NCBI GenBank assembly: GCA_963802945.1
Contig: CAWDKY010000014.1
Location: 155,855-219,854, forward strand
Source of the DNA: an uncultured delta proteobacterium
Lineage (GTDB): Bacteria; Desulfobacterota; RBG-13-43-22
Direction of reading: 5' to 3'
Length of the DNA: 64,000 bases
Shown: positions 21,176 through 34,342 of the stretch, piece after piece
How positions within the stretch are numbered: the stretch's first letter is position 1
How the letters are laid out: each line of letters opens with the position of its first letter
Program-made: the position numbers and the translations under genes
Notes under the pieces: generated by a model
The model's input: only the letters and a program-made list of their open reading frames with translations
The model's database searches: none
What the model was told of the DNA's origin: nothing

Positions 21176-22921
21176 ATGGACCTTTCTTCCCTAACACCAT
21201 CACAAGAGCAGGCGGTCAGACATCGGGGAAGCCCCTTGATTGTTTTGGCTGGGCCCGGGACAGGGAAGACCAGAACCCTGACCCTTCGTATCGCCCACCT
21301 GATAGAATCTGGAATCACCCGCCCTGATCAAATACTGGCCATCACCTTTACCAATAAAGCCGCCGAGGAAATGAGGTCCCGGATAGAACAACTCTGTCGA
21401 TCGATCGAAAGTGCTTCCCTGCCCTGGATTTCCACTTTTCACGGCTTTTGTTTCCGCTTCCTTCGGGAGCATCTTTCTACCTCTTTTCAATTATTATCTG
21501 AAAATGAGTCCTTGGTTTTTCTCAAAGAAACCGTCCGAAAACAATTCCCCGACTTCCCGACCCAGTCTTTAAAGGACTTAGCCCGGCACATCTCCTGGGC
21601 CAAGAATGCCTTGATTCTACCAGATTTACCAGAAACACTCCCCCATTGGGATACCTATCCAAAGTGGCCTTCCTGCTATCAAGTCTTTCAGGAAAAGCTT
21701 GCTGATCACCAATTTTGGGATTTTGATGAACTCCTTATTCAAGCCGTTACCCTCATGGAAAGAAATCCCGACCTGAGGGCCGTGCTTCAAGCCCGATTCC
21801 CCCATGTATTCATTGATGAATTTCAGGATATCAACCCTTGCCAATATCGGCTCTTTCAACTATTGACCCAAAAAAATGGGGAATGGATGGTTATTGGCGA
21901 CCCCAATCAGGCTATCTACGGCTTCCGGGGGGCCAGCGCCGATTTTTTCTCCCGCCTCCGACAAGATTGTCCCTCTTCGACGGAAATTGTTCTTAGGGAG
22001 ACTTTTCGGCTGAACCGGACCGTCCTGGCAGCTTCGTCTCAGGTCATAAGGAGTTCGCCCCGGAACTTAATCTCAAACCGAAAAGGGGAGCCCTCATTTC
22101 CCGTGGTCAGTCTGTCCTCGGCCGAAGAAGAAGGGGAATACATCACCCGGATGATAGAAGAAGAAATGGGGGGGCTGAGCCTGTCAGCCGAAGGGCCGAA
22201 TTCTTTTTTTAGGCAGAACCAGCCCCGAAGTTTTGCCGATTTTGCTGTTCTTTACCGCCTTCACGCCCAAGGGGTACTGCTGGCCAAGGCCTTTTCAAAG
22301 AAGGGGATCCCCTTTAAAAAGATACAGGAAGTGCACTGGGTGGAAAGGGCGGAAATTCGCGCCTGCTTGACTTTGCTCAAGGCTTTACCCTCTTTAGAGG
22401 TTTCCCCGGCGGAAGCAATAGAAGAGGTTGTTTCGCATGAAAATCCAGAAGTTCATCCGACCACGGCCGAAGGAGCTGAAGCCTTGAAAAAGCTTCGTCT
22501 ATGGGCGGCCACGTTCAAAGGTCGTCTGGGAGAATTTATTGAGGTCCTTTCGATTCAAACCGGACTGGATACCTATGAACCGGATCAGGAAACCGTTAAA
22601 CTTTTGACCCTTCATGCAGCCAAAGGCTTAGAGTTTCCCATAGTCATCATTGCCGGTTGTGAGGCTAACCTTCTTCCCCTCTCTTTGCTTAAGGAATCGG
22701 ATCTGGAAGAAGAACGGCGTCTTTTTTACGTGGGCTTGACCCGAGCCAAAGAAAAAATTATTTTGACCTGGGCCAAAAAACGAACCTTATTCGGGCAGAA
22801 ACTGGTCCAATCCCCCTCTCCGTTTCTAGAAAATATTGAAGCCCTCCTAAAAGATCAGATTAATATTGAAGGGACTAAGCCATCGAAGAAACCGCTTAAA
22901 AAGCAGATGTCCCTGTTTTAA
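21176..22921 (+). CDS. UvrD/PcrA-family SF1 helicase
   Basis: AGPGTGKT, TFTNKAA, DEFQD, GDPNQAIYGFRGA, TLHAAKGLEF, EERRLFYVGLTRA. Confidence 0.92.
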   Translation: MDLSSLTPSQEQAVRHRGSPLIVLAGPGTGKTRTLTLRIAHLIESGITRPDQILAITFTNKAAEEMRSRIEQLCRSIESASLPWISTFHGFCFRFLREHLSTSFQLLSENESLVFLKETVRKQFPDFPTQSLKDLARHISWAKNALILPDLPETLPHWDTYPKWPSCYQVFQEKLADHQFWDFDELLIQAVTLMERNPDLRAVLQARFPHVFIDEFQDINPCQYRLFQLLTQKNGEWMVIGDPNQAIYGFRGASADFFSRLRQDCPSSTEIVLRETFRLNRTVLAASSQVIRSSPRNLISNRKGEPSFPVVSLSSAEEEGEYITRMIEEEMGGLSLSAEGPNSFFRQNQPRSFADFAVLYRLHAQGVLLAKAFSKKGIPFKKIQEVHWVERAEIRACLTLLKALPSLEVSPAEAIEEVVSHENPEVHPTTAEGAEALKKLRLWAATFKGRLGEFIEVLSIQTGLDTYEPDQETVKLLTLHAAKGLEFPIVIIAGCEANLLPLSLLKESDLEEERRLFYVGLTRAKEKIILTWAKKRTLFGQKLVQSPSPFLENIEALLKDQINIEGTKPSKKPLKKQMSLF

Positions 22922-22961
22922 TTGGGAGATCTCTTTTGGGTTTAAAATTTACCGGGTTATC

Positions 22962-23012
22962 TTGACAAGAATCCAGCAGATGATTATCTGTTAAATAAAA
23001 GCATGTTATTTA
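22962..23012 (+). promoter_or_regulatory. Sigma-70-like promoter of Hsp20 with downstream inverted repeat
   Basis: TTGACA at 22962, tatctg 17 nt later; TAAATAA-N7-TTATTTA at 22992-23012. Confidence 0.45.
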
Positions 23013-23051
23013 GTAATGCCGAAGATTAAAATATAAAAAGGGGGTGTTCCT

Positions 23052-23498
23052 ATGTTTGACCTTGTGCCATGGGAAAGAACAAAAACCTTATCCAAGTTAA
23101 GAAAAGAGATGGATGATTTGTGGGGCCGTTTTTTCGGGGATGCCGGTTTTCCGATCTTCTCAGAAGCGGCCTGGGCACCGGCTTTGGATGTCAAGGAGAC
23201 AAAAGAAAACATAGTGGTCACCGCTGAAATCCCGGGTTTAAATGCCAAAGAGGTGGAAGTGACCATCAGCGGTGATTTGCTGACCATCAAAGGGGAAAAG
23301 AAACAGGAAAAAGAAGAAAAGGACGAGTCCTATCACCTGATCGAACGACGTTACGGCTCTTTTTCCCGGAGTATCCGGCTGACCACCGATGTAGATGCAA
23401 AAAATATCAAGGCCTCTCATAAAGAGGGGATCCTGACTATTACCTTGCCTAAAAGCGAGAAGGCCAAAGAAAAACAGATCAAGATTAATGTAGAATAA
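23052..23498 (+). CDS. Hsp20/alpha-crystallin small heat shock protein
   Basis: PALDVKE, EIPG, LTIKGEK, ERRYGSFSRSIRL, GILTITLPK. Confidence 0.95.
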   Translation: MFDLVPWERTKTLSKLRKEMDDLWGRFFGDAGFPIFSEAAWAPALDVKETKENIVVTAEIPGLNAKEVEVTISGDLLTIKGEKKQEKEEKDESYHLIERRYGSFSRSIRLTTDVDAKNIKASHKEGILTITLPKSEKAKEKQIKINVE

Positions 23499-23515
23499 GA
23501 TCCGAACAATAACCG

Positions 23516-23557
23516 AAAAAGAAAAGGCCGTATCATCCGATACGGCCTTTTCTTTTT
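23516..23557 (+). terminator. Intrinsic (probably bidirectional) terminator
   Basis: aaaaagaaaaggccgtatc-atcc-gatacggccttttcttttt. Confidence 0.9.
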
Positions 23558-23672
23558 AAACCCTATTGCCCGTTTGGGGTGGGTACCACGAAACATGAAA
23601 ATTTTTATAAGGATTCAAGGGGTCAATGGATTGAAAGGTTCAATTTTAAACCTATCCTCATTGTTTTTTTTC

Positions 23673-23702
23673 TTGACAAAGGGGTACTTCTTCCATTAAA
23701 TT
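23673..23702 (+). promoter_or_regulatory. Sigma-70 promoter of the aro leader
   Basis: TTGACA 23673-23678, ttaaat/taaatt 17-18 nt later. Confidence 0.6.
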
Positions 23703-23735
23703 ATTTACTATTGAGAGGTAAGTAGGGCGAAATTG

Positions 23736-23822
23736 ATGGAAAAAAGACTTTATAGCTATAATTTTTGGTATTATTTTTATTATTACTTTCCACCGGTCTG
23801 CCCATCGCTTTGGAGGACTTAA
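23736..23822 (+). CDS. Attenuator leader peptide rich in Tyr/Phe/Trp (28 aa)
   Basis: MEKRLYSYNFWYYFYYYFPPVCPSLWRT*: 7 Tyr, 3 Phe, 2 Trp; directly upstream of the aromatic biosynthesis operon. Confidence 0.88.
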   Translation: MEKRLYSYNFWYYFYYYFPPVCPSLWRT

Positions 23823-23846
23823 AGAAACTTAAAAAGAAAATAAATC

Positions 23847-23898
23847 AAAAAAAGCCATGGGGAGACGGAAAGATGCTCCTCATGGCTTTTTTGTTTTT
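23847..23898 (+). terminator. Attenuator terminator hairpin
   Basis: agccatggggag / ctcctcatggct 12-bp stem (one G-U) followed by tttttgttttt; 5' arm can alternatively pair with 23786-23811. Confidence 0.88.
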
Positions 23899-23957
23899 AC
23901 AGCATAGGATAGCCGGGAGCAACAACGTCGACCCAGGTCGTTTGAAAGGAGTTAATC

Positions 23958-24986
23958 ATGGTGATCGTGATGAAAAAACATGCCACGGGAGAAGAAATTG
24001 AAAATGTTATTAAATGGATTGAATCCGTAGGATACCAGACCCATCCCTCTCGAGGTGTGGAACAAACCATTATCGGGGTGGTTGGAGACGACCGGGGTAA
24101 GGCCCAATTAAAATCCGTAGAGTATCTTCCCGGAGTGGAAAAGGTCGTTCCTATCTTGAAACCCTATAAACTCGCCAGCCGGGAGGGCAGACCGGGGGAT
24201 ACGATCGTTCAGGTCGGTAATGTTGAAATCGGCGGCCCGGAATTTATTGTCATGGCCGGCCCCTGCTCCATTGAAAGCGACGAACAACTGATGGAAAGCG
24301 CTTACATCATAAAAAAGGGTGGCGCCCACATCTTAAGAGGCGGGGCTTACAAGCCCAGGACCTCTCCCTATAGCTTCCAGGGGCTGGAAGAAGAGGGGCT
24401 TAAGATGTTGAAAAAGGTCCGCGATAAAATGAATATCCCGGTGATCACCGAGGTCATGAACACCACGGAGGTTGAGTTGGTTGAAGAAAACAGCGACATC
24501 CTGCAGATCGGGACCCGGAACGTCCAAAATTTTCCTCTCTTGAAAAAAGTCGGCCAATCCAGAAAGCCGGTCCTTTTAAAAAGAGGCATGATGACCACGA
24601 TTGAAGAGCTTCTGATGTCTGCTGAATATATTCTTGCCGCCGGGAACGATCAGGTCATCCTTTGCGAGCGAGGCATCCGAACCTTTGAAACCGCCACCCG
24701 TAACACCCTGGATTTGAGCGCCGTCCCGGTCTTAAAGGAACTGACCCACCTACCGGTTATCGTCGATCCCAGCCACGCCACCGGCCATTGGAAATACGTC
24801 CTTCCCTTATCCCGGGCCGCCTTGGCCGTGGGAGCCGATGGATTGCTCATCGAAGTCCATCCCCAGCCGGAAAAGGCCCTCTGTGACGGTCCGCAGTCCC
24901 TGAAACCGGAAAAATTTTATCAACTGATGGATGAATTAAGGATGTTGCAGGGGGTTTTAAGAAAAGGAACAGGTGCTTTGCAATGA
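23958..24986 (+). CDS. aroF: DAHP synthase, class I-beta with N-terminal regulatory domain
   Basis: [47 protein letters not shown]. Confidence 0.93.
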
Positions 24987-26079
24987 ATCAGATCAGGGTT
25001 AATTTAGACGCCCAAACCCCAACCCATTATAAAATCTATATTGGTCGGGATATTATAGATCGAATAGGGGTTATTTTAAATAAAGGGGACTGGATCAACC
25101 GTTATGTCATTATCACCGATTCCCAGGTGAAAACCATTCACGGGAAAAGGGTGTTGGATACCTTAAGAAAGATGGATCTCAATGTAGATATGATCGATTT
25201 TTCTGCCGGGGAGAGTTCAAAAAACATACAAACTTCCCTTCAGTTGGTGGACAGCCTGATCGCCCTGGGGGCGGACAGACATTCCGGCCCTGATCGCCTT
25301 GGGAGGAGGAGTGGTTGGGGATATAACCGGGTTCATTGCCTCTATCTTATATGAGGGGCCTTCCTTTTTTTCAGATGCCAACCACCCTTCTGGCCCAGGT
25401 GGACAGCAGTATCGGAGGCAAGACCGGGATTGACCTTCCGGTCGGAAAAAATCTCCTGGGGACTTTCTATCAGCCCCAGGCGGTTTTTATCGACCTGACC
25501 TTTCTCCAAACCCTGACGGACCTGGAATTCAATAACGGCCTTCCGGAAATCCTGAAATATGGGATTATTGAAGATCCAGAACTCTTACGGACCTTGGAGG
25601 ATAATACAGAAGCCATCAGGGCCCGGGATTTTTCTCTGATGGAAAGGATAATTTCCAAATCCTGCCGGATCAAAAAAAGGATCGTGGAAATGGATGAGAA
25701 AGAAGGCGGACTCCGCCGCATTCTTAACTTCGGCCATACTATCGGTCATGCCGTGGAAGCGGAATCGGGTTATTCCCTCTCTCACGGGCAAGCCGTGGCC
25801 ATCGGCATGGTCTGTGCCGCCTTCTTGTCTGAGAAATTAAACTATTTATCTTCCAAAGAACGGGAGCGGATCGAGTCCCTGGTCAAGGCCTTCGGTCTGC
25901 CTTACCGTATCCCCAAAGAACTGAAAACAAAAGCCCTGCTTGACAGGATGATGAGAGACAAGAAAAAAGAGGGGGCCATTCTCCCTTTTGTGCTGCTGAA
26001 AAAAATCGGACTCCCTTTTATCAATGGAGGGGTTTCCGAGAAAAAAATTCAGGAAACGATTGAGGCCCTGAAAGCATGA
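24983..26079 (+). CDS. aroB: 3-dehydroquinate synthase, frameshifts near 25285 and 25347
   Basis: GESSK, (ALGGGVVGD in intermediate frame), PTTLLAQVDSSIGGKTG, LNFGHTIGHA, HGQAV. Confidence 0.9.
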
Positions 26080-27155
26080 AAAAAAATTCGATAAAAAAAT
26101 TAAGAGACGACTTAAGAAAAAAAGATCAGGAAATTGTAACCCTCCTTAACGAACGAGCCGAACTGGCCCTTAAAGTGGGCCGAATTAAAAATGAGAACGG
26201 CCAGGAAATCTATGATCCTTCCCGGGAGAGCCTGGTTTATCAGCATTTATCTCAGATCAGCCAAGGGCCTCTACCCGTAAAGGCCCTGCAGGACATTTAC
26301 CGGGAGATTGTCTCGGCCTCCCGTGCCCTGCAAGGACCCATCACTGTGGATTATTTTGGTCCGGAAGCCTCTTTCACCCACTTGGCCGCTTTGGCCCATT
26401 TCGGCCGATCAGCGCAGCTTATACCGCAAACCACTATCCCCATGGTCTTTGAACAAGTCGAAAGGGGTAGGAGTTCTTACGGTGTGGTACCCATTGAGAA
26501 TTCCGGAGAGGGATCGGTTAAACCGACCCTTGATTGTTTGCTTACAACGCCGCTTTCCATCCGGGCCGAGGTTTTTTTAAGGATCTCCCATTATCTTCTG
26601 GCCTCCCCCAAAAAGATGAAAAACATCAAAAGAATTTATTCCCATCCCCAGGCCCTGGCTCAGTGCCAGGTCTGGTTGGAGAGGAACTTTCCTCGGCGGC
26701 CTTTATTAAAAGTGGAGAATACGGCCGAGGCGGCCAAAAAGGTTTTGGAGGACAGGGAGGGAGCGGCCATAGGCAGCCTGCAGGCCGCTGAGTTGTACGG
26801 ACTTCAAATCCTGGCCGACAGGATTGAGGATTACCCTTTAAACACCACCCGATTTCTTATTATAGGAAAAGGTCGAAGTGAACCTTCCGGAATTGATAAA
26901 ACTTCTATCCTCTTTGGAACCACCCACGTTCCGGGGGCTTTGCTTCACGCCCTAGAACCCTTTGCCCGGGAAGGACTGAATCTGCTCAGGATCGAGTCCT
27001 ATCCCTGGCCGAATCGGATGTGGGAATATTTATTCTTCGTGGATTTTGCCGGGCATCAAGAGGACGAGAATGTCCAACGCTGTTTGAAAGAGACCGGGAA
27101 GGTCACCAATTTTCTCAAGGTCATGGGGTCTTATCCCTGGGGAGAAACACCGTGA
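26076..27155 (+). CDS. pheA: Chorismate mutase / prephenate dehydratase (P-protein)
   Basis: N-terminal CM domain (LLNERA, YDPSRE), PIENS, SHPQALAQC, NTTRF, ACT domain. Confidence 0.93.
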   Translation: MKKNSIKKLRDDLRKKDQEIVTLLNERAELALKVGRIKNENGQEIYDPSRESLVYQHLSQISQGPLPVKALQDIYREIVSASRALQGPITVDYFGPEASFTHLAALAHFGRSAQLIPQTTIPMVFEQVERGRSSYGVVPIENSGEGSVKPTLDCLLTTPLSIRAEVFLRISHYLLASPKKMKNIKRIYSHPQALAQCQVWLERNFPRRPLLKVENTAEAAKKVLEDREGAAIGSLQAAELYGLQILADRIEDYPLNTTRFLIIGKGRSEPSGIDKTSILFGTTHVPGALLHALEPFAREGLNLLRIESYPWPNRMWEYLFFVDFAGHQEDENVQRCLKETGKVTNFLKVMGSYPWGETP

Positions 27156-27841
27156 GGATCTGCATTCCCATCACCGCTGCTACTACCCAGGAAGCCCTGA
27201 CCAAAATGAAAAAAGGGTTTGCTCTGGCCAAAATGTTGGAATTGAGAATTGATGGAATCCCAAAAGTTGATTTAAAGAAATTGTTGGCCGAAAAAAAGGG
27301 AGAAATTCTGATAACCAACCGGGTCAGGGAAGAGGGAGGGGCCTTTGTCGGCGGAGAACAAAAAAGGGTGGCCCTCTTAAAAAAGGCCGTGGCCTTGGGC
27401 TGCGATTATGTAGACCTGGAGATCAGGACAGAACAGGCCTTAATTCTTGAACTGAAGAAAAAAATCGCCGGCCATCGCAGGCGCACCCGGTTGATCCTTT
27501 CTTATCATAATCAGGAAAGGACCCCAGGGATGAATATCTTAAGAAAAAAAATAATTGAAGGGTATAAGTCCGGAGCAGATATCCTCAAGATCGTTACTTT
27601 TGCCAAAAAGATGGAGGACAATCTCAAGGTCCTTGGCCTCATTCCCTATGCTCAAAAAAAAGGTTTGAAGATCATAGCCTTCTGCCTGGGAGAAAAAGGA
27701 AAGATCAGCCGGATCATGGCTCCAATGCTGGGTTCTTATCTGACCTATGCCTCTTTGGAGAAAGGGGAAGAATCAGCTCCGGGACAAATGACGGTTGAAG
27801 AAATCAAGCGGGTATTAAGGATGTTGGGAGAAAAGAAATAG
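27152..27841 (+). CDS. aroD: Type I 3-dehydroquinate dehydratase
   Basis: GTG overlapping pheA stop; ELRID, EGG, LSYH, SRI, SAPGQ. Confidence 0.9.
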   Translation: MRICIPITAATTQEALTKMKKGFALAKMLELRIDGIPKVDLKKLLAEKKGEILITNRVREEGGAFVGGEQKRVALLKKAVALGCDYVDLEIRTEQALILELKKKIAGHRRRTRLILSYHNQERTPGMNILRKKIIEGYKSGADILKIVTFAKKMEDNLKVLGLIPYAQKKGLKIIAFCLGEKGKISRIMAPMLGSYLTYASLEKGEESAPGQMTVEEIKRVLRMLGEKK

Positions 27842-27956
27842 GCTTAATAAAATATTTGAAATAAAATTGTTACGGGTTGCAGGTTAGATAATCGTGTCTT
27901 TTGGCCGTCAACTAGAACCAATGCCATTAACTTAAGGGAAACTTTATATCCAAATC

Positions 27957-28170
27957 GTCACCCCGGCGAAAGCCGGGGTCCAGAAAAGCTAATAAAAGCT
28001 GGATTCCGGCTTCCGAGACTGTGTCGCAATTATATTTTTGTCATTCCGTGCAAGCGAAGCGCGACACGGAATCCAGTATTTTCATTAAGTTCTGGATGCC
28101 GGCTTTCGCCGGCATGACGGCTTTGACGGCTCTGTCCGCTATTACGACACAGTCTCTCCGCCGGAATGAC
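27957..28170. repeat. REP-like palindrome doublet interrupted by a MITE
   Basis: gtcaccccggcgaaagccggggtccag ... ctggattccggct[tcc MITE tcc]gccggaatgac. Confidence 0.85.
28015..28156. mobile_element. 142-bp MITE, copy 1
   Basis: TIRs gagactgtgtcgcaat / attacgacacagtctc; 3-bp duplication tcc; near-identical copy at 30418. Confidence 0.88.
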
Positions 28171-28263
28171 TCCAAGAGTTCCAAACCAGAGCAATAAAGT
28201 TTAAGTTAACAGTATTGACCCGTAACTCGTAACCCCAAACCCGTAACCAGAAATTTATAAGTC

Positions 28264-29082
28264 ATGCCGACATCGGACATAAAAATCTTTGCTGTTTTTG
28301 GAAACCCGGTCGCCCATAGCTTGTCACCGCTGATGCACCAGGCGGCTTTCAACCGGATGGGTCTCAAGGCCCAATATGTCCCATTTTGTGTGAAAGACAT
28401 AGGGAAGGCCGTGGATGGGATCCGGGGTCTGGATATTCAGGGGGTGAGTGTCACCCTGCCGTTTAAAACCGAAGTCATAGATTTTTTAGATGAGGTCGAA
28501 GAAGATGCCCGCCGGATCGGGGCGGTCAATACGATTAAAAATAGTCGGGGGAGACTTATAGGATACAACACCGACTGGAAAGGATTTGTCCTTTCATTGA
28601 AAGAAGGCCTGGAAATCAGGGGAAAACAATTTGCCGTCATTGGGGCCGGAGGTGCGGCCAGGGGGATTGTTTATGGCCTGATAAAGGAAGGTGGATATCC
28701 GATTATCCTGAACCGAACCCTTTCCAAAGCAAAGGCCCTGGGGAAGAAATTCGGGTGTCCTTTTCTGCCGTTTTCCGAAAAAGAAAAGATCAAGGCGGAC
28801 TGTCTGATCAATACCACCTCACTGGGGATGGTTCCAAACAAAGAGAAGTCACCTTTCCCCAAGAAGTTTCTTAAAAAATTTCCATGGGTCGTGGATATCA
28901 TTTATAATCCTTTAAAGACAAAACTCCTCAAGGGAGCCGAGGAAGCGGGATGCCGGACCATATCCGGTGTGGGAATGTTCGTGCATCAGGGAGCGGAACA
29001 AATAAAAATCTGGACCGGTCAGGAACCCCCCAGGGCCTATATGAAAAAAGTTGTTCTGGCTAAACTCGAAGAAAATGATTGA
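28264..29082 (+). CDS. aroE: Shikimate dehydrogenase
   Basis: GNPVAHSLSP, VTLPFK, GAVNT, NTD, GAGGAA, NRT, DIIYNP. Confidence 0.95.
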   Translation: MPTSDIKIFAVFGNPVAHSLSPLMHQAAFNRMGLKAQYVPFCVKDIGKAVDGIRGLDIQGVSVTLPFKTEVIDFLDEVEEDARRIGAVNTIKNSRGRLIGYNTDWKGFVLSLKEGLEIRGKQFAVIGAGGAARGIVYGLIKEGGYPIILNRTLSKAKALGKKFGCPFLPFSEKEKIKADCLINTTSLGMVPNKEKSPFPKKFLKKFPWVVDIIYNPLKTKLLKGAEEAGCRTISGVGMFVHQGAEQIKIWTGQEPPRAYMKKVVLAKLEEND

Positions 29083-30337
29083 GATAAAGCCCATAACTCA
29101 GCTCAATGCCCGGGTAACCATGCCTGGTTCAAAAAGCTACACCCAAAGGGCAATGATCATGGCCGCCCTGGCCGAAGGGGGCTCTTGTTTGCAAGGGCCG
29201 CTTTTTTCTGAAGATACCGGATATCTGACCGAAGCCCTCCGTCTGCTGGGCGCAGGGATTCAGGTCCATAATGGTGCAATGTTAGTGCAGGGAACAGCAG
29301 GATGGATCAGCAATCCCAAAAAAGAAATCTATCTGGGAAACAACGGCACAGCCATGCGCTTACTGACCACCGTGGTCTGCCTTGGGAAAGGGGAATTTTT
29401 TCTCACCGGCGCCCCCCGTCTTTTGGAAAGACCGGTTCAGCCTTTACTTACCGCCCTGAAAACTCTGGGGGTGGAGGCCCGAAGTGAAGGCAGGGAAGGG
29501 TTTCCGCCGGTTGTCATCCGGGCCGATGGTCTTCAGGGGGGGAAGATCCAACTCCGTAATATTGAAAGCAGTCAATATGTCTCCTCCCTTTTGATTTCCG
29601 CCCCATTGGCCAGAGAAGACTTTTCCCTTGAACTTCAGGGTTCAATACCTTCTATGCCTTATGTGGAAATGACAGCGGCTTTGATGAAACAATTTGGCGT
29701 GGAGGTCGAAAGACCCTCATCAGCCCGGTTTTTAATAAAAGCCCGGCAAAAATATCAGGGCATTACCTGCCGGATTGAAGGAGATGTTTCGGGCGCCTCT
29801 TACTTTTTTTTGGCTGCTGCTCTGTGCCAGGGGAGGGTAAGAGTGGAGCCGATCATTCCCAACACCCTCCAAGGCGACATTGGTTTTTTAAAGATTTTGG
29901 AGGAACTCGGCTGCGAGGTTATCCGAGGCGATCATTGGGTGGAGGTTACAGGAGGAAAACTGGTATCAGGAGAAATCATCTTTGACTTTGGTGATATGCC
30001 GGATGTGGTTCCAACCTTGGCTGTCCTGGCCGCCTGCCGTCCGGGTAGAACGATTATTAAAAATGTCGCCCATCTCAGAATAAAAGAAAGCAATCGTCTG
30101 GAAGCCCTGGTCAGGGAATTGACTAAGACCGGGATCAAGGCCGAAGAGACAGAAGACGGTCTCAGGATAGAAGGGGGCAGGCCTCATGGGGCGGAGATTG
30201 AAACCTATAACGATCACCGGATAGCCATGAGCTTTGCCATCCTGGGTTTGGCTGTGCCGGGCATTAAAATCAAAGATCCGGACTGTGTTAAAAAATCCTT
30301 TCCAGGATTTTGGGGAGAATTGAAAAAACTGTATTAA
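29075..30337 (+). CDS. aroA: EPSP synthase
   Basis: PGSKS, GNNGTAMR, SSQYVS, RIKESNR, DHRIAM, KSFP. Confidence 0.95.
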   Translation: MIEIKPITQLNARVTMPGSKSYTQRAMIMAALAEGGSCLQGPLFSEDTGYLTEALRLLGAGIQVHNGAMLVQGTAGWISNPKKEIYLGNNGTAMRLLTTVVCLGKGEFFLTGAPRLLERPVQPLLTALKTLGVEARSEGREGFPPVVIRADGLQGGKIQLRNIESSQYVSSLLISAPLAREDFSLELQGSIPSMPYVEMTAALMKQFGVEVERPSSARFLIKARQKYQGITCRIEGDVSGASYFFLAAALCQGRVRVEPIIPNTLQGDIGFLKILEELGCEVIRGDHWVEVTGGKLVSGEIIFDFGDMPDVVPTLAVLAACRPGRTIIKNVAHLRIKESNRLEALVRELTKTGIKAEETEDGLRIEGGRPHGAEIETYNDHRIAMSFAILGLAVPGIKIKDPDCVKKSFPGFWGELKKLY

Positions 30338-30403
30338 ATCCTCATGCCCGCTTTCGCTGGAGTCAATGGAAAATGAACATATTGATTTATCATGTAATAA
30401 GGT

Positions 30404-30624
30404 GTCATTCCGGCGAAGAGACTGTGTCGCAATTATATTTTTGTCATTCCGTGCAAGCGAAGCGCGACACGGAATCCAGTATTTTATTAAGTTCTGGATG
30501 CCGGCTTTCGCCGGCATGACGGCTTTGATGGCGCTGTCCGCTATTACGACACAGTCTCGAAAGCCGGAATCCAGGTAACTTATATCATCAAATGCCCTGG
30601 ATGCCGGATCAAGTCCGGCATGAC
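30404..30624. repeat. REP-like palindrome doublet interrupted by a MITE
   Basis: gtcattccggc[gaa MITE gaa]agccggaatccag ... ctggatgccggatcaagtccggcatgac. Confidence 0.85.
30418..30558. mobile_element. 141-bp MITE, copy 2
   Basis: Same TIRs; 3-bp duplication gaa; differs from copy 1 by one indel and two substitutions. Confidence 0.88.
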
Positions 30625-30677
30625 GTTGAAAAGACCACACCAAGGCATAGGTGGGTGCTATTATCGCAATAAAAACC

Positions 30678-31199
30678 ATGCATATTTTCTTAATAGGATA
30701 TCGCGGTAGCGGAAAAACCTCGGTGGGCAGGAAGCTGGCTGAAAAACTAAAGGCCCCTTTTTATGACACCGATCAAATGATCATAGACCGTATGGGTAAA
30801 ACGATCAAACAATGGGTGGAGGAAAAAGGATGGGAATCCTTTCGCCAGGAAGAAAAGGCCATCATCCAGGAGATCTCTTCTTTGGATTGCGCTGTAATTG
30901 CCCTGGGTGGGGGTGCGGTGATGGACCCTGAAAACAGGGAAGTATTAAAACAAAAGGGTCTGATCGTTTGGCTGAGCGCCGATGTCCAAACCATCATGGA
31001 AAGGATGAAATCCGACCCTGCGAATGAGGACAATCGTCCCGCCCTTTCCGCCAAGGATTGGGAGACTGAAATCCAAGAACTGCTGGCACAACGCATACCG
31101 GTTTATCAGCGATGGGCTGATTTTTCCGTAGACACGGATGGAAAGAATATTGAGGGGATTGCTGAAGAGATTTGTAATCATATCCAACAAGCCCAATGA
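30678..31199 (+). CDS. aroK: Shikimate kinase
   Basis: GYRGSGKT, DTD, GWESFR, LGGG, NRPAL. Confidence 0.92.
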   Translation: MHIFLIGYRGSGKTSVGRKLAEKLKAPFYDTDQMIIDRMGKTIKQWVEEKGWESFRQEEKAIIQEISSLDCAVIALGGGAVMDPENREVLKQKGLIVWLSADVQTIMERMKSDPANEDNRPALSAKDWETEIQELLAQRIPVYQRWADFSVDTDGKNIEGIAEEICNHIQQAQ

Positions 31200-31236
31200 A
31201 CCCAATGAACTCAATGAACCAAAAAAACCAAACAGA
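31192..31236 (+). repeat. 9-bp tandem repeat overlapping the aroK stop
   Basis: cccaatgaa cccaatgaa ctcaatgaa ccaaaaaaa ccaaacaga. Confidence 0.7.
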
Positions 31237-31250
31237 ACATTGGAGACGCT

Positions 31251-32306
31251 ATGTCCGGTAATTCAACAGGTGTTTTATTTAAAGTTACGACTTGGGGAGA
31301 ATCTCATGGACCGGCGACAGGTGCGGTCATAGAGGGCTGCCCGCCTTTGATCCCTTTGACTGAACAAGACATCCAGAAAGACTTAAGCAGAAGAAAACCC
31401 GGACGAATGGCAACCGCTTCTTCAAGGAAAGAGGAAGACCGGATAGAAATCCTTTCCGGTGTCTTCGAAGGCCGGACCACCGGGACCCCCATTGCCCTGC
31501 TCATCCGCAATAAAGATGCGGACAGCTCGGCCTATGATGCCCTTAAAGAGGTTTTTCGCCCAGGTCATGGGGATATTACTTATTTAAAAAAATACGGGAT
31601 CAGGGATCACCGGGGAGGCGGCCGCTCTTCAGGAAGGGAAACCGCAGCCCGCGTGGCCGCCGGGGCCGTTGCCAAAAAAGTGCTTGCCAGGGAAGGTATA
31701 AAGGTTATTGCCTATACCTTGGAATTGGGCGGCATCCGGGCCGAGGTCATTAACCTGGGTGCAATTTCCAAAAACAACCTCTTTTGTCCTGATCCTGAGG
31801 CGGCTTTAAAGATGGAAAAAAAGTTACGGGCGATTGCCGAGAAAGGGGATACCCTCGGAGGGATTGTGGAGATCATGGTCCGGGGATGTCCTGCGGGCCT
31901 AGGGGAGCCGGTCTTTGACAAGATGGATGCCGATCTGGCCAAGGCCTTGATGAGCATCGGATCAATCAAAGGGGTGGAAATCGGTGCCGGATTTGAAGCG
32001 GCCCGGATGACCGGTTCTGTTTGTAACGACGCCATAACACCTAAAGGGTTCTTGACCAATAATGCCGGCGGCATTCTGGCCGGTATCACCAACGGCGATG
32101 ACCTGATTATCCGGGCGGCCTGCAAGCCCATCTCTTCCATCAGGAAAGAACAAAAAACCGTCGATCTTTCGGGGAAGCCGGTTGCTTTATCGATCAAAGG
32201 CAGACATGATGCATCGGTCATCCCACGGATCATTCCGGTCTGTGAGGCCATGGTCAGCCTGGTCTTGGCCGATCATCTGTTAAGACAGAAGGCGATTTCT
32301 AAATGA
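31251..32306 (+). CDS. aroC: Chorismate synthase
   Basis: GESHG, RPGHGD, GGGRSSGRET, NNAGGILAGI, GRHD. Confidence 0.96.
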   Translation: MSGNSTGVLFKVTTWGESHGPATGAVIEGCPPLIPLTEQDIQKDLSRRKPGRMATASSRKEEDRIEILSGVFEGRTTGTPIALLIRNKDADSSAYDALKEVFRPGHGDITYLKKYGIRDHRGGGRSSGRETAARVAAGAVAKKVLAREGIKVIAYTLELGGIRAEVINLGAISKNNLFCPDPEAALKMEKKLRAIAEKGDTLGGIVEIMVRGCPAGLGEPVFDKMDADLAKALMSIGSIKGVEIGAGFEAARMTGSVCNDAITPKGFLTNNAGGILAGITNGDDLIIRAACKPISSIRKEQKTVDLSGKPVALSIKGRHDASVIPRIIPVCEAMVSLVLADHLLRQKAISK

Positions 32307-33076
32307 AAAAAATCAGGATCGGAATCATAGGAGGGACCGGTGGAATAGGCCGATGGTTTGGCCATTTTTTTCAAAAGGAAGGTTTTGAGGTTGTGATCTC
32401 CGGCAGGAAGGTTGGTCCGGATTTCCAAACGCTAGCCCGGCTATGTCCCGTGGTGGTGGTCAGTGTTCCGATCAAGGTGACCTGCCAGGTAATTGAACAA
32501 GTAGGGCCTTTTATGCCCAAGGAATCCCTTTTGGTGGACCTCACTTCTCTTAAAGAAGAACCGGTCAAGGCCATGCTCAAATCCTCTCGGTCCGAGATCA
32601 TCGGCCTTCATCCTTTGTTTGGACCCAAAATAAAGTCCATGGCCGGGCATAATATTGTCTTGTGTCCGGCCCGGACCCGTAAGTGGCTTCCCTGGATAAA
32701 AAATATTTTTCTTAAAAATAGGGCACGGCTAATCGAGACCACCCCCAGACATCATGACGAACTGATGGCCCTGGTCCAGGGATTAAACCATCTAAATACC
32801 ATCACCCTGGGTCTGACTTTGGGGCGTTCAGGCTTCGATTTTGAAGAGCTGAAACAAGTTGCCACCCCGAATCTTAAAGCCAAGCTGGATATTTTGAAAG
32901 ATGTTTTCAGCCAAAATCCAAGGCTGTATGCCGAAATCATTACCCAGAACCCATATCTTCCTAAGGTGGTGAAGGGATATGAGGAAAGCCTTTCCGAAAT
33001 GAAAAAATGGATCGAACGTAAGGACAGTGTGAATCTGCAAAAACGTATAGAGGGCACAAAACTTTTTTCTCAATAA
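32303..33076 (+). CDS. tyrA: Prephenate/arogenate dehydrogenase
   Basis: GGTGGIG, DLTSLK, HPLFGP, HDELMALVQGL. Confidence 0.88.
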   Translation: MKKIRIGIIGGTGGIGRWFGHFFQKEGFEVVISGRKVGPDFQTLARLCPVVVVSVPIKVTCQVIEQVGPFMPKESLLVDLTSLKEEPVKAMLKSSRSEIIGLHPLFGPKIKSMAGHNIVLCPARTRKWLPWIKNIFLKNRARLIETTPRHHDELMALVQGLNHLNTITLGLTLGRSGFDFEELKQVATPNLKAKLDILKDVFSQNPRLYAEIITQNPYLPKVVKGYEESLSEMKKWIERKDSVNLQKRIEGTKLFSQ

Positions 33077-33172
33077 ACTCTTTGGCCCGATGGATTTTAC
33101 CGTATCCTTCCTTAAAATCCATGCCCAAAAATGTAATTTAGAATTAACAGGATGAGGAAAAACATTTTTAAA

Positions 33173-33295
33173 AGGTTGCTCAAAAAGGTTTAGATACAAG
33201 GCGCCCGAAACCCCGAGGAATGAGTCGTACATAAAAGTACGTCGCAATGACGAGGGATGAGGGCAACAAAGTAGATAGACCTTTTTCAGCAACCT
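33173..33295. mobile_element. MITE-like palindromic element
   Basis: TIRs aggttgctcaaaaaggt / acctttttcagcaacct; core gaggaatgagtcgtac-N6-gtacgtcgcaat. Confidence 0.7.
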
Positions 33296-33313
33296 GTTAA
33301 AGGATAAAAAAAC

Positions 33314-34342
33314 ATGAGCTTCAAGTACATTAGAGCAATATCCACTCCCCAGGAGATTCTGGAGGCTATGCCGCTGTCACAGGACCTGGCTCGCATCAAG
33401 AAAAATCGGGATCAGGAGATCAAGACCGTCTTCACTAGGGAGAGCAACAGGTTCCTGCTCATCATCGGCCCTTGTTCGGCCCATGATGAAGATGCGGTCT
33501 GCGATTATATAGCTCGGTTGGCCCGGGTGCAGGCAGAGGTCAAGGATAAGATCATCCTGATTCCGAGAATCTATACCAACAAACCCCGCACCGACGGTAT
33601 GGGCTATAAGGGCATGGTCCACCAGCCGGACCCCCACCAAGAACCCAATATTGTCGAAGGAATCCAGGCCATCCGGAGGATGCACATCCGCGCCCTTCGG
33701 GAATCAAACCTTCCGGCTGCCGATGAAATGCTCTATCCCGGAAACTATCCTTACCTTGAGGATGTTTTAAGTTATGTGGCGGTGGGTGCCCGTTCGGTGG
33801 AGAATCAGGCCCATCGCCTGACCTGCAGCGGTCTTGAAGTACCTGTGGGTATGAAAAATCCGACTTCCGGAGAACTTGAAGTGGCCCTTAATTCTATTCA
33901 GGCTTCACAAGCTTCCCATGTTTTCAATTATAATGGCTGGGAAGTCAAGACCACCGGCAATCCCCTGACCCATGCCGTGCTTCGGGGAGCGGTGGATCAC
34001 TTCAAGCTGGCGGTTCCCAATTACCATTTCGAGGATCTGACCCTTTTTGCCAAGGCCTATCAGAAACGAGGGTTGGTCAACCCGACGATCATCGTGGACA
34101 CCAATCATGCCAACTCCAACAAGAAATTTGCCGAACAACCCCGTATCGCCAAAGAGGTTATGCACAGCCGTCGGCACTCCGGTCTGCTTACGGATATGGT
34201 TCGGGGCTTGATGATCGAAAGTTTTATCGAGGAAGGCTCCCAGCCCCCGACGGGTACGGTGTACGGGAAGTCGATCACCGACCCGTGTTTAAGCTGGAAA
34301 GACAGCGAAAGGCTGATTCGTGATCTGGCCGGGATGCTATAG
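33314..34342 (+). CDS. DAHP synthase, class I-alpha (AroG/AroH-like)
   Basis: IGPCSAH, KPRT, GYKG, VGARS, GMKNPTSG, HANS, IES, YGKSITDPC. Confidence 0.92.
   Translation: MSFKYIRAISTPQEILEAMPLSQDLARIKKNRDQEIKTVFTRESNRFLLIIGPCSAHDEDAVCDYIARLARVQAEVKDKIILIPRIYTNKPRTDGMGYKGMVHQPDPHQEPNIVEGIQAIRRMHIRALRESNLPAADEMLYPGNYPYLEDVLSYVAVGARSVENQAHRLTCSGLEVPVGMKNPTSGELEVALNSIQASQASHVFNYNGWEVKTTGNPLTHAVLRGAVDHFKLAVPNYHFEDLTLFAKAYQKRGLVNPTIIVDTNHANSNKKFAEQPRIAKEVMHSRRHSGLLTDMVRGLMIESFIEEGSQPPTGTVYGKSITDPCLSWKDSERLIRDLAGML

Follow-up and report, generated by a model that had tools for sequence, protein, structure and literature searches.

A leader with Tyr, Phe and Trp codons upstream of aroF in an uncultured delta proteobacterium is a probable ribosome-mediated transcription attenuator

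The genes of the shikimate pathway lie in a single row in a 64,000-nucleotide (nt) stretch of DNA from an uncultured delta proteobacterium (GTDB lineage Desulfobacterota, RBG-13-43-22; assembly GCA_963802945.1, contig CAWDKY010000014.1, positions 155,855 to 219,854 of the forward strand), and the question raised by this locus is how their transcription is controlled. The whole stretch is referred to below as the window, and all positions are counted from its first letter. Ten same-strand genes headed by aroF (23958–34342) follow a short leader. An earlier note on this DNA, made from the letters alone, had described this leader as a candidate attenuator in which an open reading frame (ORF) rich in aromatic codons, a terminator and a mutually exclusive antiterminator would together respond to Tyr, Phe and Trp. 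From the evidence presented here, the leader is very probably a ribosome-mediated (leader-peptide) transcription attenuator, and the core of the earlier proposal was supported by conservation, constraint at the RNA level, covariation and footprint-masked folding. The elements of the leader are as follows.

23664–23702, plus strand: promoter, with a T-run, the −35 hexamer TTGACA (23673–23678), an 18-nt spacer and the −10 hexamer TAAATT (23697–23702)
23736–23822, plus strand: leader ORF of 28 codons and TAA, MEKRLYSYNFWYYFYYYFPPVCPSLWRT, with ATG at 23736 and TAA at 23820–23822
23751–23789, plus strand: putative regulatory codons Tyr6 to Phe18, 11 of the 13 codons being aromatic
23793–23811, plus strand: region 2, proposed 5′ strand of the antiterminator, within codons 20–26 of the ORF
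23812–23816, plus strand: Shine–Dalgarno-like GGAGG, 4 nt upstream of the leader stop codon
23823–23850, plus strand: A-rich spacer between the leader stop and the terminator
23851–23869, plus strand: region 3, common to both structures as the 3′ strand of the antiterminator and the 5′ arm of the terminator (stem 23854–23864)
23876–23898, plus strand: region 4, with the 3′ arm of the terminator (23876–23886) and the U-tract (23887–23898)

The promoter hexamers, comprising the TTGACA already pointed out in the earlier note and a TAAATT located 18 nt downstream of it, matched the consensus at 10 of 12 positions. The transcript would start near 23709, about 27 nt before the leader ATG, which is positioned 58 nt downstream of the −35 hexamer and is preceded at a distance of 8 nt by AGGG, a weak Shine–Dalgarno sequence. 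Translation of the ORF agreed with the earlier description of an upstream ORF (uORF) in which 12 of the 28 residues are aromatic, and codons 10–18 (23763–23789) form an unbroken row of nine aromatic codons consisting of one Trp, five Tyr and three Phe. The aromatic run taken alone is not beyond chance in the genome of the window (4.37 Mb), where 176 stop-to-stop frames carry at least seven aromatic residues in a 10-residue window and six of them carry at least nine. By-eye inspection of 10 other top aromatic-run frames of this genome revealed no leader-like layout. The leader rises above chance because of its context and its conservation.

The terminator stem is formed by pairing of GCCATGGGGAG (23854–23864) with CTCCTCATGGC (23876–23886) across an 11-nt loop and is followed by the tail TTTTTTGTTTTT; the hairpin folded in isolation gave −26.4 kcal/mol. 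It was skipped by a simple terminator scanner, the loop limit of which was 8 nt. The sequence 23793–23811 was found to be complementary to 23851–23869 save for two 1×1 mismatches (G.G and C.C), CTTTCC at 23786–23791 is able to pair with GGAAAG at 23867–23872, and the antiterminator stem-loop folded at −24.6 kcal/mol. The terminator and the exclusive antiterminator that draws on its 5′ arm, both proposed in the earlier note, are thus borne out by the complementarity and by the two folding energies.

With this arrangement, the leader is proposed to operate in the following manner. With an ample supply of charged Tyr, Phe and Trp tRNAs, the ribosome would cross the aromatic codons and region 2 and arrive at the stop codon, 9 nt past region 2. 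Region 2 would then be covered by the ribosome during the synthesis of regions 3 and 4, allowing the 3:4 terminator to form and transcription to stop at the U-tract upstream of aroF. A shortage of an aromatic aminoacyl-tRNA would cause the ribosome to stall within codons 6–17 and leave region 2 free to pair with region 3 upon its emergence, in which case no terminator would form and the polymerase would enter aroF and the genes behind it. The layout suggests both ribosome stalling and ribosome–polymerase coupling, while a response to each of the three aromatic amino acids is suggested by the codon content. It appears to be a three-region design, in which region 2 is directly occluded by the translating or terminating ribosome.

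Conservation was evaluated within the genus of the window, where 12 loci carry an aroF ortholog (85–100% identity). All 12 loci retain the TTTTTTTCTTGACA promoter, the ATG (start codons were assigned by eye on the alignment), the aromatic run in the form ..F.F.FW[FY]YFYYY.., the block CCGGTCTGCCCATCGC and the terminator. Among these 12 species, no change was seen at 15 of 16 bases in region 2 or at any of the 11 bases of the terminator 5′ arm (the region 3 stem), against 7 of 11 invariant bases in the 3′ arm, in which the changes are mainly C/T opposite G; the third codon positions of aroF in the same species are invariant at 58 of 341 (17%). The invariance of regions 2 and 3 in comparison with the variable third positions of aroF therefore indicates that the RNA, rather than the peptide tail, is under selection. 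Doubly constrained strands that are frozen, together with a singly constrained 3′ arm that drifts, are what would be predicted of a terminator/antiterminator pair. A covariance model built from the 12 loci (R1) gave 14 matches at E ≤ 5e-25, located in the genome of the window and in 12 of 13 congeners; the congener without a match (G010) is 85% complete and is without an orthologous aroF.

Weaker full-length matches of R1 in two sister genera corresponded to leaders with other peptides, namely, MISLQSQQDFYYFYYWPGTRLLMD, MFTYQSVQDYYFFYYTWRGTGLPMD, MFAQQSRPDFYYFYYTRRGTGLPRD and MQVRQASFSFYYYFYYPWP, each with its own terminator and with 2:3 complementarity in which bases had changed, as established by manual inspection. 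One sister genus has two genomes whose leader translates the conserved GTCTGC..CATGG RNA in a frame other than that used in the window, giving WPGTRLLMD, as in MISLQSQQDFYYFYYWPGTRLLMD. Among these sister-genus genomes, one has the leader before aroK-aroC. When species-representative genomes were scanned with the aroF protein, 80 loci (74–96% identity) were obtained, all from metagenome-assembled genome (MAG) records labelled Thermodesulfobacteriota, Deltaproteobacteria, Pseudomonadota, Syntrophales, Syntrophaceae, Smithellaceae, Smithella or Syntrophus aciditrophicus. An aromatic uORF was present within 500 nt upstream in 78 of the 80, usually ending in ..VCPSLRR*; the carriers include L085, whose MAG record bears the label Syntrophus aciditrophicus. 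The two orthologs without a scored leader are L102, with just 235 nt of upstream sequence, and L073, where the script took another Phe-rich frame and the upstream sequence shows the ATGATGGGCAGA start further on. The expectation of the earlier note that relatives would carry conserved aromatic uORFs before aroF thus held for 12 of 12 loci within the genus and for 78 of 80 orthologs in the wider set. In 75 of the 78 loci, the distance from TTGACA to the downstream leader stop was 60–260 nt. A first hairpin with a T-run was located no more than 40 nt from that stop in 73 of the 78; at the other five, the pattern caught just a second, more downstream hairpin.

The conserved-looking tail VCPSLRR of the Syntrophales-type leaders raises the possibility of a nascent arrest peptide, comparable to TnaC, which would sense a free aromatic amino acid and stall on its abundance and not on its scarcity. 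This is highly improbable. The tail is conserved at synonymous sites too, the sister genus mentioned above reads the same RNA in another frame in two genomes, leaders found elsewhere in the phylum have unrelated tails (e.g., AYLRPLHLRS and GPGLPVGLEVETLE), and a biosynthetic operon would not be expected to be switched on by abundance.

Further features were observed in these loci. The spacer between the promoter hexamers of the window (23679–23696) is an imperfect purine/pyrimidine palindrome (AAGGGGTAC TTCTTCC), and the relatives have a −35/−10 spacer of different sequence that is palindrome-like all the same, e.g., AAGGAGGACCTCTT and AAGAAGGCCTTTT; the palindromic spacer may be a repressor operator on top of attenuation. 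In many Syntrophales-type loci (L076, L086, L087, L093, L104, L106 and others), the leader terminator is immediately followed by another strong hairpin, GGCCATGG...CCATGGCC. The arms of the two hairpins are alike, CCATGG being self-complementary, and the second one may be a tandem terminator or provide a further alternative pairing. The genus of the window shares aroF and the leader with Syntrophales-labelled MAGs at 74–80% protein identity, while the sister genera of its own family have another operon arrangement (leader-aroK-aroC...) and a 3-deoxy-D-arabino-heptulosonate 7-phosphate (DAHP) synthase lacking the N-terminal domain. Transfer or differential loss may account for this sharing.

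To ascertain the pairing between regions 2 and 3, the last 66 nt of each ORF were evaluated against the terminator 5′ arm and compared with 100 dinucleotide shuffles. The 2:3 duplex had z < −2 in 68 of 73 loci (mean z −3.3) and always ended 6–18 nt before the end of the stop codon. In the alignment of 73 distinct sequences, the antiterminator register paired 82.6% of cells, against 29–44% when slid by 1–3 columns, and 8 of its 18 pairs change on both sides. Cells with such double changes numbered 35 against 13.9 ± 2.9 in shuffles, none of 500 shuffles reaching 35, with a control that ignores phylogeny in a set where many sequences are close kin and the changes are mostly one-sided or wobble. 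All 73 sequences share a C.C-type mismatch at one antiterminator position. For the terminator, paired cells amounted to 93.1%, and double-sided changes were seen in 7 of its 14 pairs. The covarying stems that the earlier note had proposed to look for in relatives are hence seen in both structures, and covariation in the proposed register may be regarded as good but not conclusive. These data also bear on the view that the uORF encodes a functional aromatic micropeptide and that the hairpin is merely its terminator, with no switch involved. A conserved small ORF followed by a terminator is what this view would predict. It is exceedingly improbable, as the peptide varies freely outside the aromatic run, the downstream genes identified always belong to aromatic biosynthesis and lie directly 3′ on the same strand, and the complementarity and covariation of the antiterminator are left unexplained by it.

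A second covariance model (R2), built from the 73 distinct sequences, extended the leader beyond these loci. R2 matched 19 of the 21 genomes of the family of the window, which makes up its entire order and class in the genome collection, with a single copy in the genome of the window. Among 151 genomes sampled evenly across the phylum, matches were obtained in 65, representing 44 of 110 genera. All 16 phylum-level loci inspected from outside the genus showed an aromatic uORF and a terminator hairpin, and 15 of them showed a 2:3 duplex with z ≤ −2.2; the duplexes include A:U to G:C exchanges at two positions (read by hand). The genes downstream of six phylum-level leaders were tested, and three encode DAHP synthases and three encode ADH synthases (TIGR01949). 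ADH synthase, i.e., 2-amino-3,7-dideoxy-D-threo-hept-6-ulosonate synthase, catalyzes the first step of the archaeal-type pathway leading to dehydroquinate. In L150, L154 and L155, from other families of the phylum, the aromatic leader stands before the ADH synthase gene in place of a DAHP synthase gene, an arrangement that links a bacterial attenuation device to the archaeal-type dehydroquinate route.

The codon content of 77 distinct leaders was analyzed with respect to the amino acids likely to be sensed. Tyr codons averaged 4.0 per leader (minimum 2), Phe codons 3.0 (minimum 0) and Trp codons 1.1, with at least one Trp codon in 70 of the 77. Both synonymous codons of Tyr (TAT 233, TAC 76) and of Phe (TTT 178, TTC 55) are used, which fits selection on the amino-acid identity of the translated codons. 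GGAG, GAGG or AGGA occurs within the last seven sense codons of 58 of the 77 leaders despite the differing residues encoded; as a speculation, the GGAGG before the stop codon of the window may help to hold the terminating ribosome above region 2.

Attenuation at aroF has a characterized precedent, which the earlier note had not known of. In Corynebacterium glutamicum, aroR is described as a Phe-Tyr-Phe leader peptide before the aroF operon (Neshat et al., 2014, as presented in PMC11802643 and, similarly, in PMC7356990), and according to the account in the 2025 review PMC11802643, attenuation is relieved under Phe limitation while Tyr availability is without effect. Going by these descriptions, the present leader is similar to aroR in its mixed aromatic codons, its placement directly before an aroF-led operon and the rise in transcription expected upon stalling. 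It differs from aroR, which belongs to another phylum, in having 11 aromatic codons among 13, including Trp, and a far longer operon. This precedent bears on a narrower reading, in which the attenuator works as described yet with a response limited to one or two aromatic amino acids, likeliest Tyr and/or Phe, the single Trp codon being too weak. Tyr and Phe codons outnumber Trp codons in the leaders, the operon contains pheA and tyrA and no trp genes, and aroR is reported in PMC11802643 to respond to Phe limitation only, though a Tyr codon is present. Against it, the Trp codon that nearly all leaders hold within or beside the run is more than a sensor of Tyr and Phe alone would need, and chorismate from the operon also feeds Trp synthesis, as established for the pathway. 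On balance, a response restricted in this way is possible but on the unlikely side.

Comparison with databases showed that no Rfam 15 family reached its gathering score in the whole window. Phe_leader (RF01859) attained 25.2 bits at the leader, its gathering score being 55; His_leader (minus strand) attained 23.5, where 49 would be required, and a T-box search of 22500–25000 gave no match at E up to 10. These results are relevant to the suggestion that a protein or tRNA factor, TRAP-like or T-box-like, chooses between the structures in place of the ribosome, the aromatic ORF being incidental. Both alternative RNA structures would be equally workable for any factor that binds region 2, and the weak Shine–Dalgarno sequence before the uORF favors a non-ribosomal factor. 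Such a mechanism is nevertheless very unlikely, given that no T-box or other Rfam family was found at gathering score in the window, that the aromatic-codon run persists throughout the phylum despite variation in its nucleotides and synonymous codons, which argues for selection on translation, and that region 2 always lies within the ORF, with the duplex ending at the distance from the stop codon given above.

The ribosome-mediated attenuator was further evaluated by folding with masked ribosome footprints, and points weighing against it came to light in this and in other analyses. The full-length leader folded to the terminator at a probability of ~1.0 for every masked ribosome position, and the switch must therefore be kinetic, as in classical attenuators. 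Footprint folding discriminates only on transcripts cut before region 4. On these, the antiterminator formed without a ribosome or with the A site at codons 6–17 and was abolished with the A site at codons 20–28; the masked-footprint check proposed in the earlier note thus failed on the full leader, which always gave the terminator, and succeeded on the truncated transcript. A ribosome placed on the stop codon masks no more than the 3′ part of region 2, and a partial antiterminator was still predicted in this case. A conserved 1:2 anti-antiterminator, i.e., a pairing partner for region 2, was not found in the leader alignments, and an untranslated leader is therefore predicted to read through. 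A loose Shine–Dalgarno-like word at −20 to −4 was present in just 47 of the 77 leaders, and the covariation is subject to the limits of its shuffle control stated earlier. With regard to the sensing of all three amino acids, Trp codons are few, just one or two, and the absence of a Tyr effect described for aroR despite its Tyr codon means that the presence of a codon is not proof of sensing.

Two candidate partners for region 2 were considered and rejected. A helix of the U-rich run with the A-rich spacer, seen when the complete leader was folded, could have served as an anti-antiterminator, but the spacer is A-rich in the genus of the window only, and the antiterminator wins in the truncated folds. 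A small local hairpin around region 2 was dropped as it showed no covariation.

In the enterobacterial leaders pheL and trpL, one amino acid is sensed, and the design has four regions with 1:2 pairing. The present leader is similar to pheL-pheA and trpL-trp in having codons for end products in the leader ORF, a terminator and a competing antiterminator, whereas 1:2 pairing was not found here and region 2 lies inside the ORF. In Escherichia coli, thrL and ilvL each combine codons for more than one end product of a branched pathway, and the mixed codons here are comparable to these, although other amino acids are concerned and the sequences are unrelated. A predicted element in Acholeplasma, uORFC-13-1, is described in PMC8632094 as a Phe uORF with a promoter, a ribosome-binding site and an adjacent intrinsic terminator, occurring exclusively before aroF. 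According to the same source, it is a U-run coding for at least one Phe, with 24 representatives confined to Acholeplasma and environmental sequences, and an older proposal that aroF of E. coli is subject to attenuation is cited there. As far as uORFC-13-1 is described in that source, the leader of the window shares with it a uORF with a promoter, Phe codons and an adjacent terminator before aroF, and differs in that its family is rich in Tyr, Phe and Trp codons, belongs to Thermodesulfobacteriota and has a defined antiterminator. A paper describing this leader family was not recognized in the open literature as judged by titles and abstract openings, subscription journals and supplements lying outside the search. 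Aromatic leaders of delta-proteobacteria are not treated in Rodionov et al. (2004; PMC545781) as judged by a word search, which returned none of "aromatic," "leader peptide," "tryptophan" or "aroF."

The leader is hence a case of a classical mechanism with a characterized precedent at aroF, in a family that matches no Rfam model, and known attenuation principles are unchanged by it. It appears evenly balanced whether a wider account also holds, by which a large leader-RNA family of Thermodesulfobacteriota would gate entry into aromatic biosynthesis by the DAHP or the ADH synthase route, with one peptide reading all three aromatics, three regions without an anti-antiterminator, a C.C mismatch that weakens the antiterminator and a Shine–Dalgarno-like motif that may park the ribosome. 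The analysis provides a regulatory annotation for the aromatic operon in poorly studied, mostly uncultured, syntroph-related Thermodesulfobacteriota, and a seed alignment and covariance model are now at hand for a leader family undetected by Rfam 15. Two questions about attenuation could be put to this leader as a natural test case, namely, the integration of three amino acids by a single leader and the ability of a leader to function in the absence of 1:2 pairing.

The genes downstream of the leader were assigned with Pfam/NCBIfam as follows.

Start 23958, plus strand: aroF, DAHP synthase with a ferredoxin-like N-terminal domain (Bacillus/Thermotoga type)
Start 24983, plus strand: aroB, in two ORFs
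Start 26076, plus strand: pheA, chorismate mutase-prephenate dehydratase
Start ~27020, plus strand: aroD
Start 28264, plus strand: aroE
Start 29051, plus strand: aroA
Start 30651, plus strand: aroK
Start 31251, plus strand: aroC
Start 32303, plus strand: tyrA
33314–34342, plus strand: AroFGH-type DAHP synthase (TIGR00034, 262.6 bits), the last gene of the cluster

Judged by their strand and order, the ten genes may form a single transcript, and the leader could then control all of them. A convincing plus-strand terminator was not predicted inside the aro cluster. Its gaps include three of 422, 313 and 237 nt, the last at 33077–33313, and internal promoters within the cluster are possible. The 422- and 313-nt gaps (27842–28263 and 30338–30650) hold one copy each of a dispersed, structured repeat of ~190 nt (GTCATTCCG...CGGAATCCAG...CTGGATGCCGGC...GCCGGCATGAC). 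A search of the genome of the window for this repeat retrieved 59 matching segments, 18 of them at least 120 nt long. The repeat resembles a miniature mobile element, and promoters or terminators could be located within it.

The first and the last gene of the cluster encode two DAHP synthases of different subtypes. The aroB gene (3-dehydroquinate synthase) is split into the overlapping ORFs 24983–25354 and 25336–26079. In comparison with the closest relative (L061), the aroB of the window contains two single-base insertions ~60 nt apart (at about 25286 and 25346), and aroB is an intact single ORF in seven relatives checked; the split represents either an assembly error or a broken gene. Upstream of the leader lies an Hsp20 gene with its own terminator, a bidirectional 19-bp hairpin with A/T-run flanks (23493–23586). 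Sub-threshold matches of the Thr_leader model on both strands (38.7 and 34.8 bits) fell on this hairpin and were discarded as false positives arising from the terminator part of the model.

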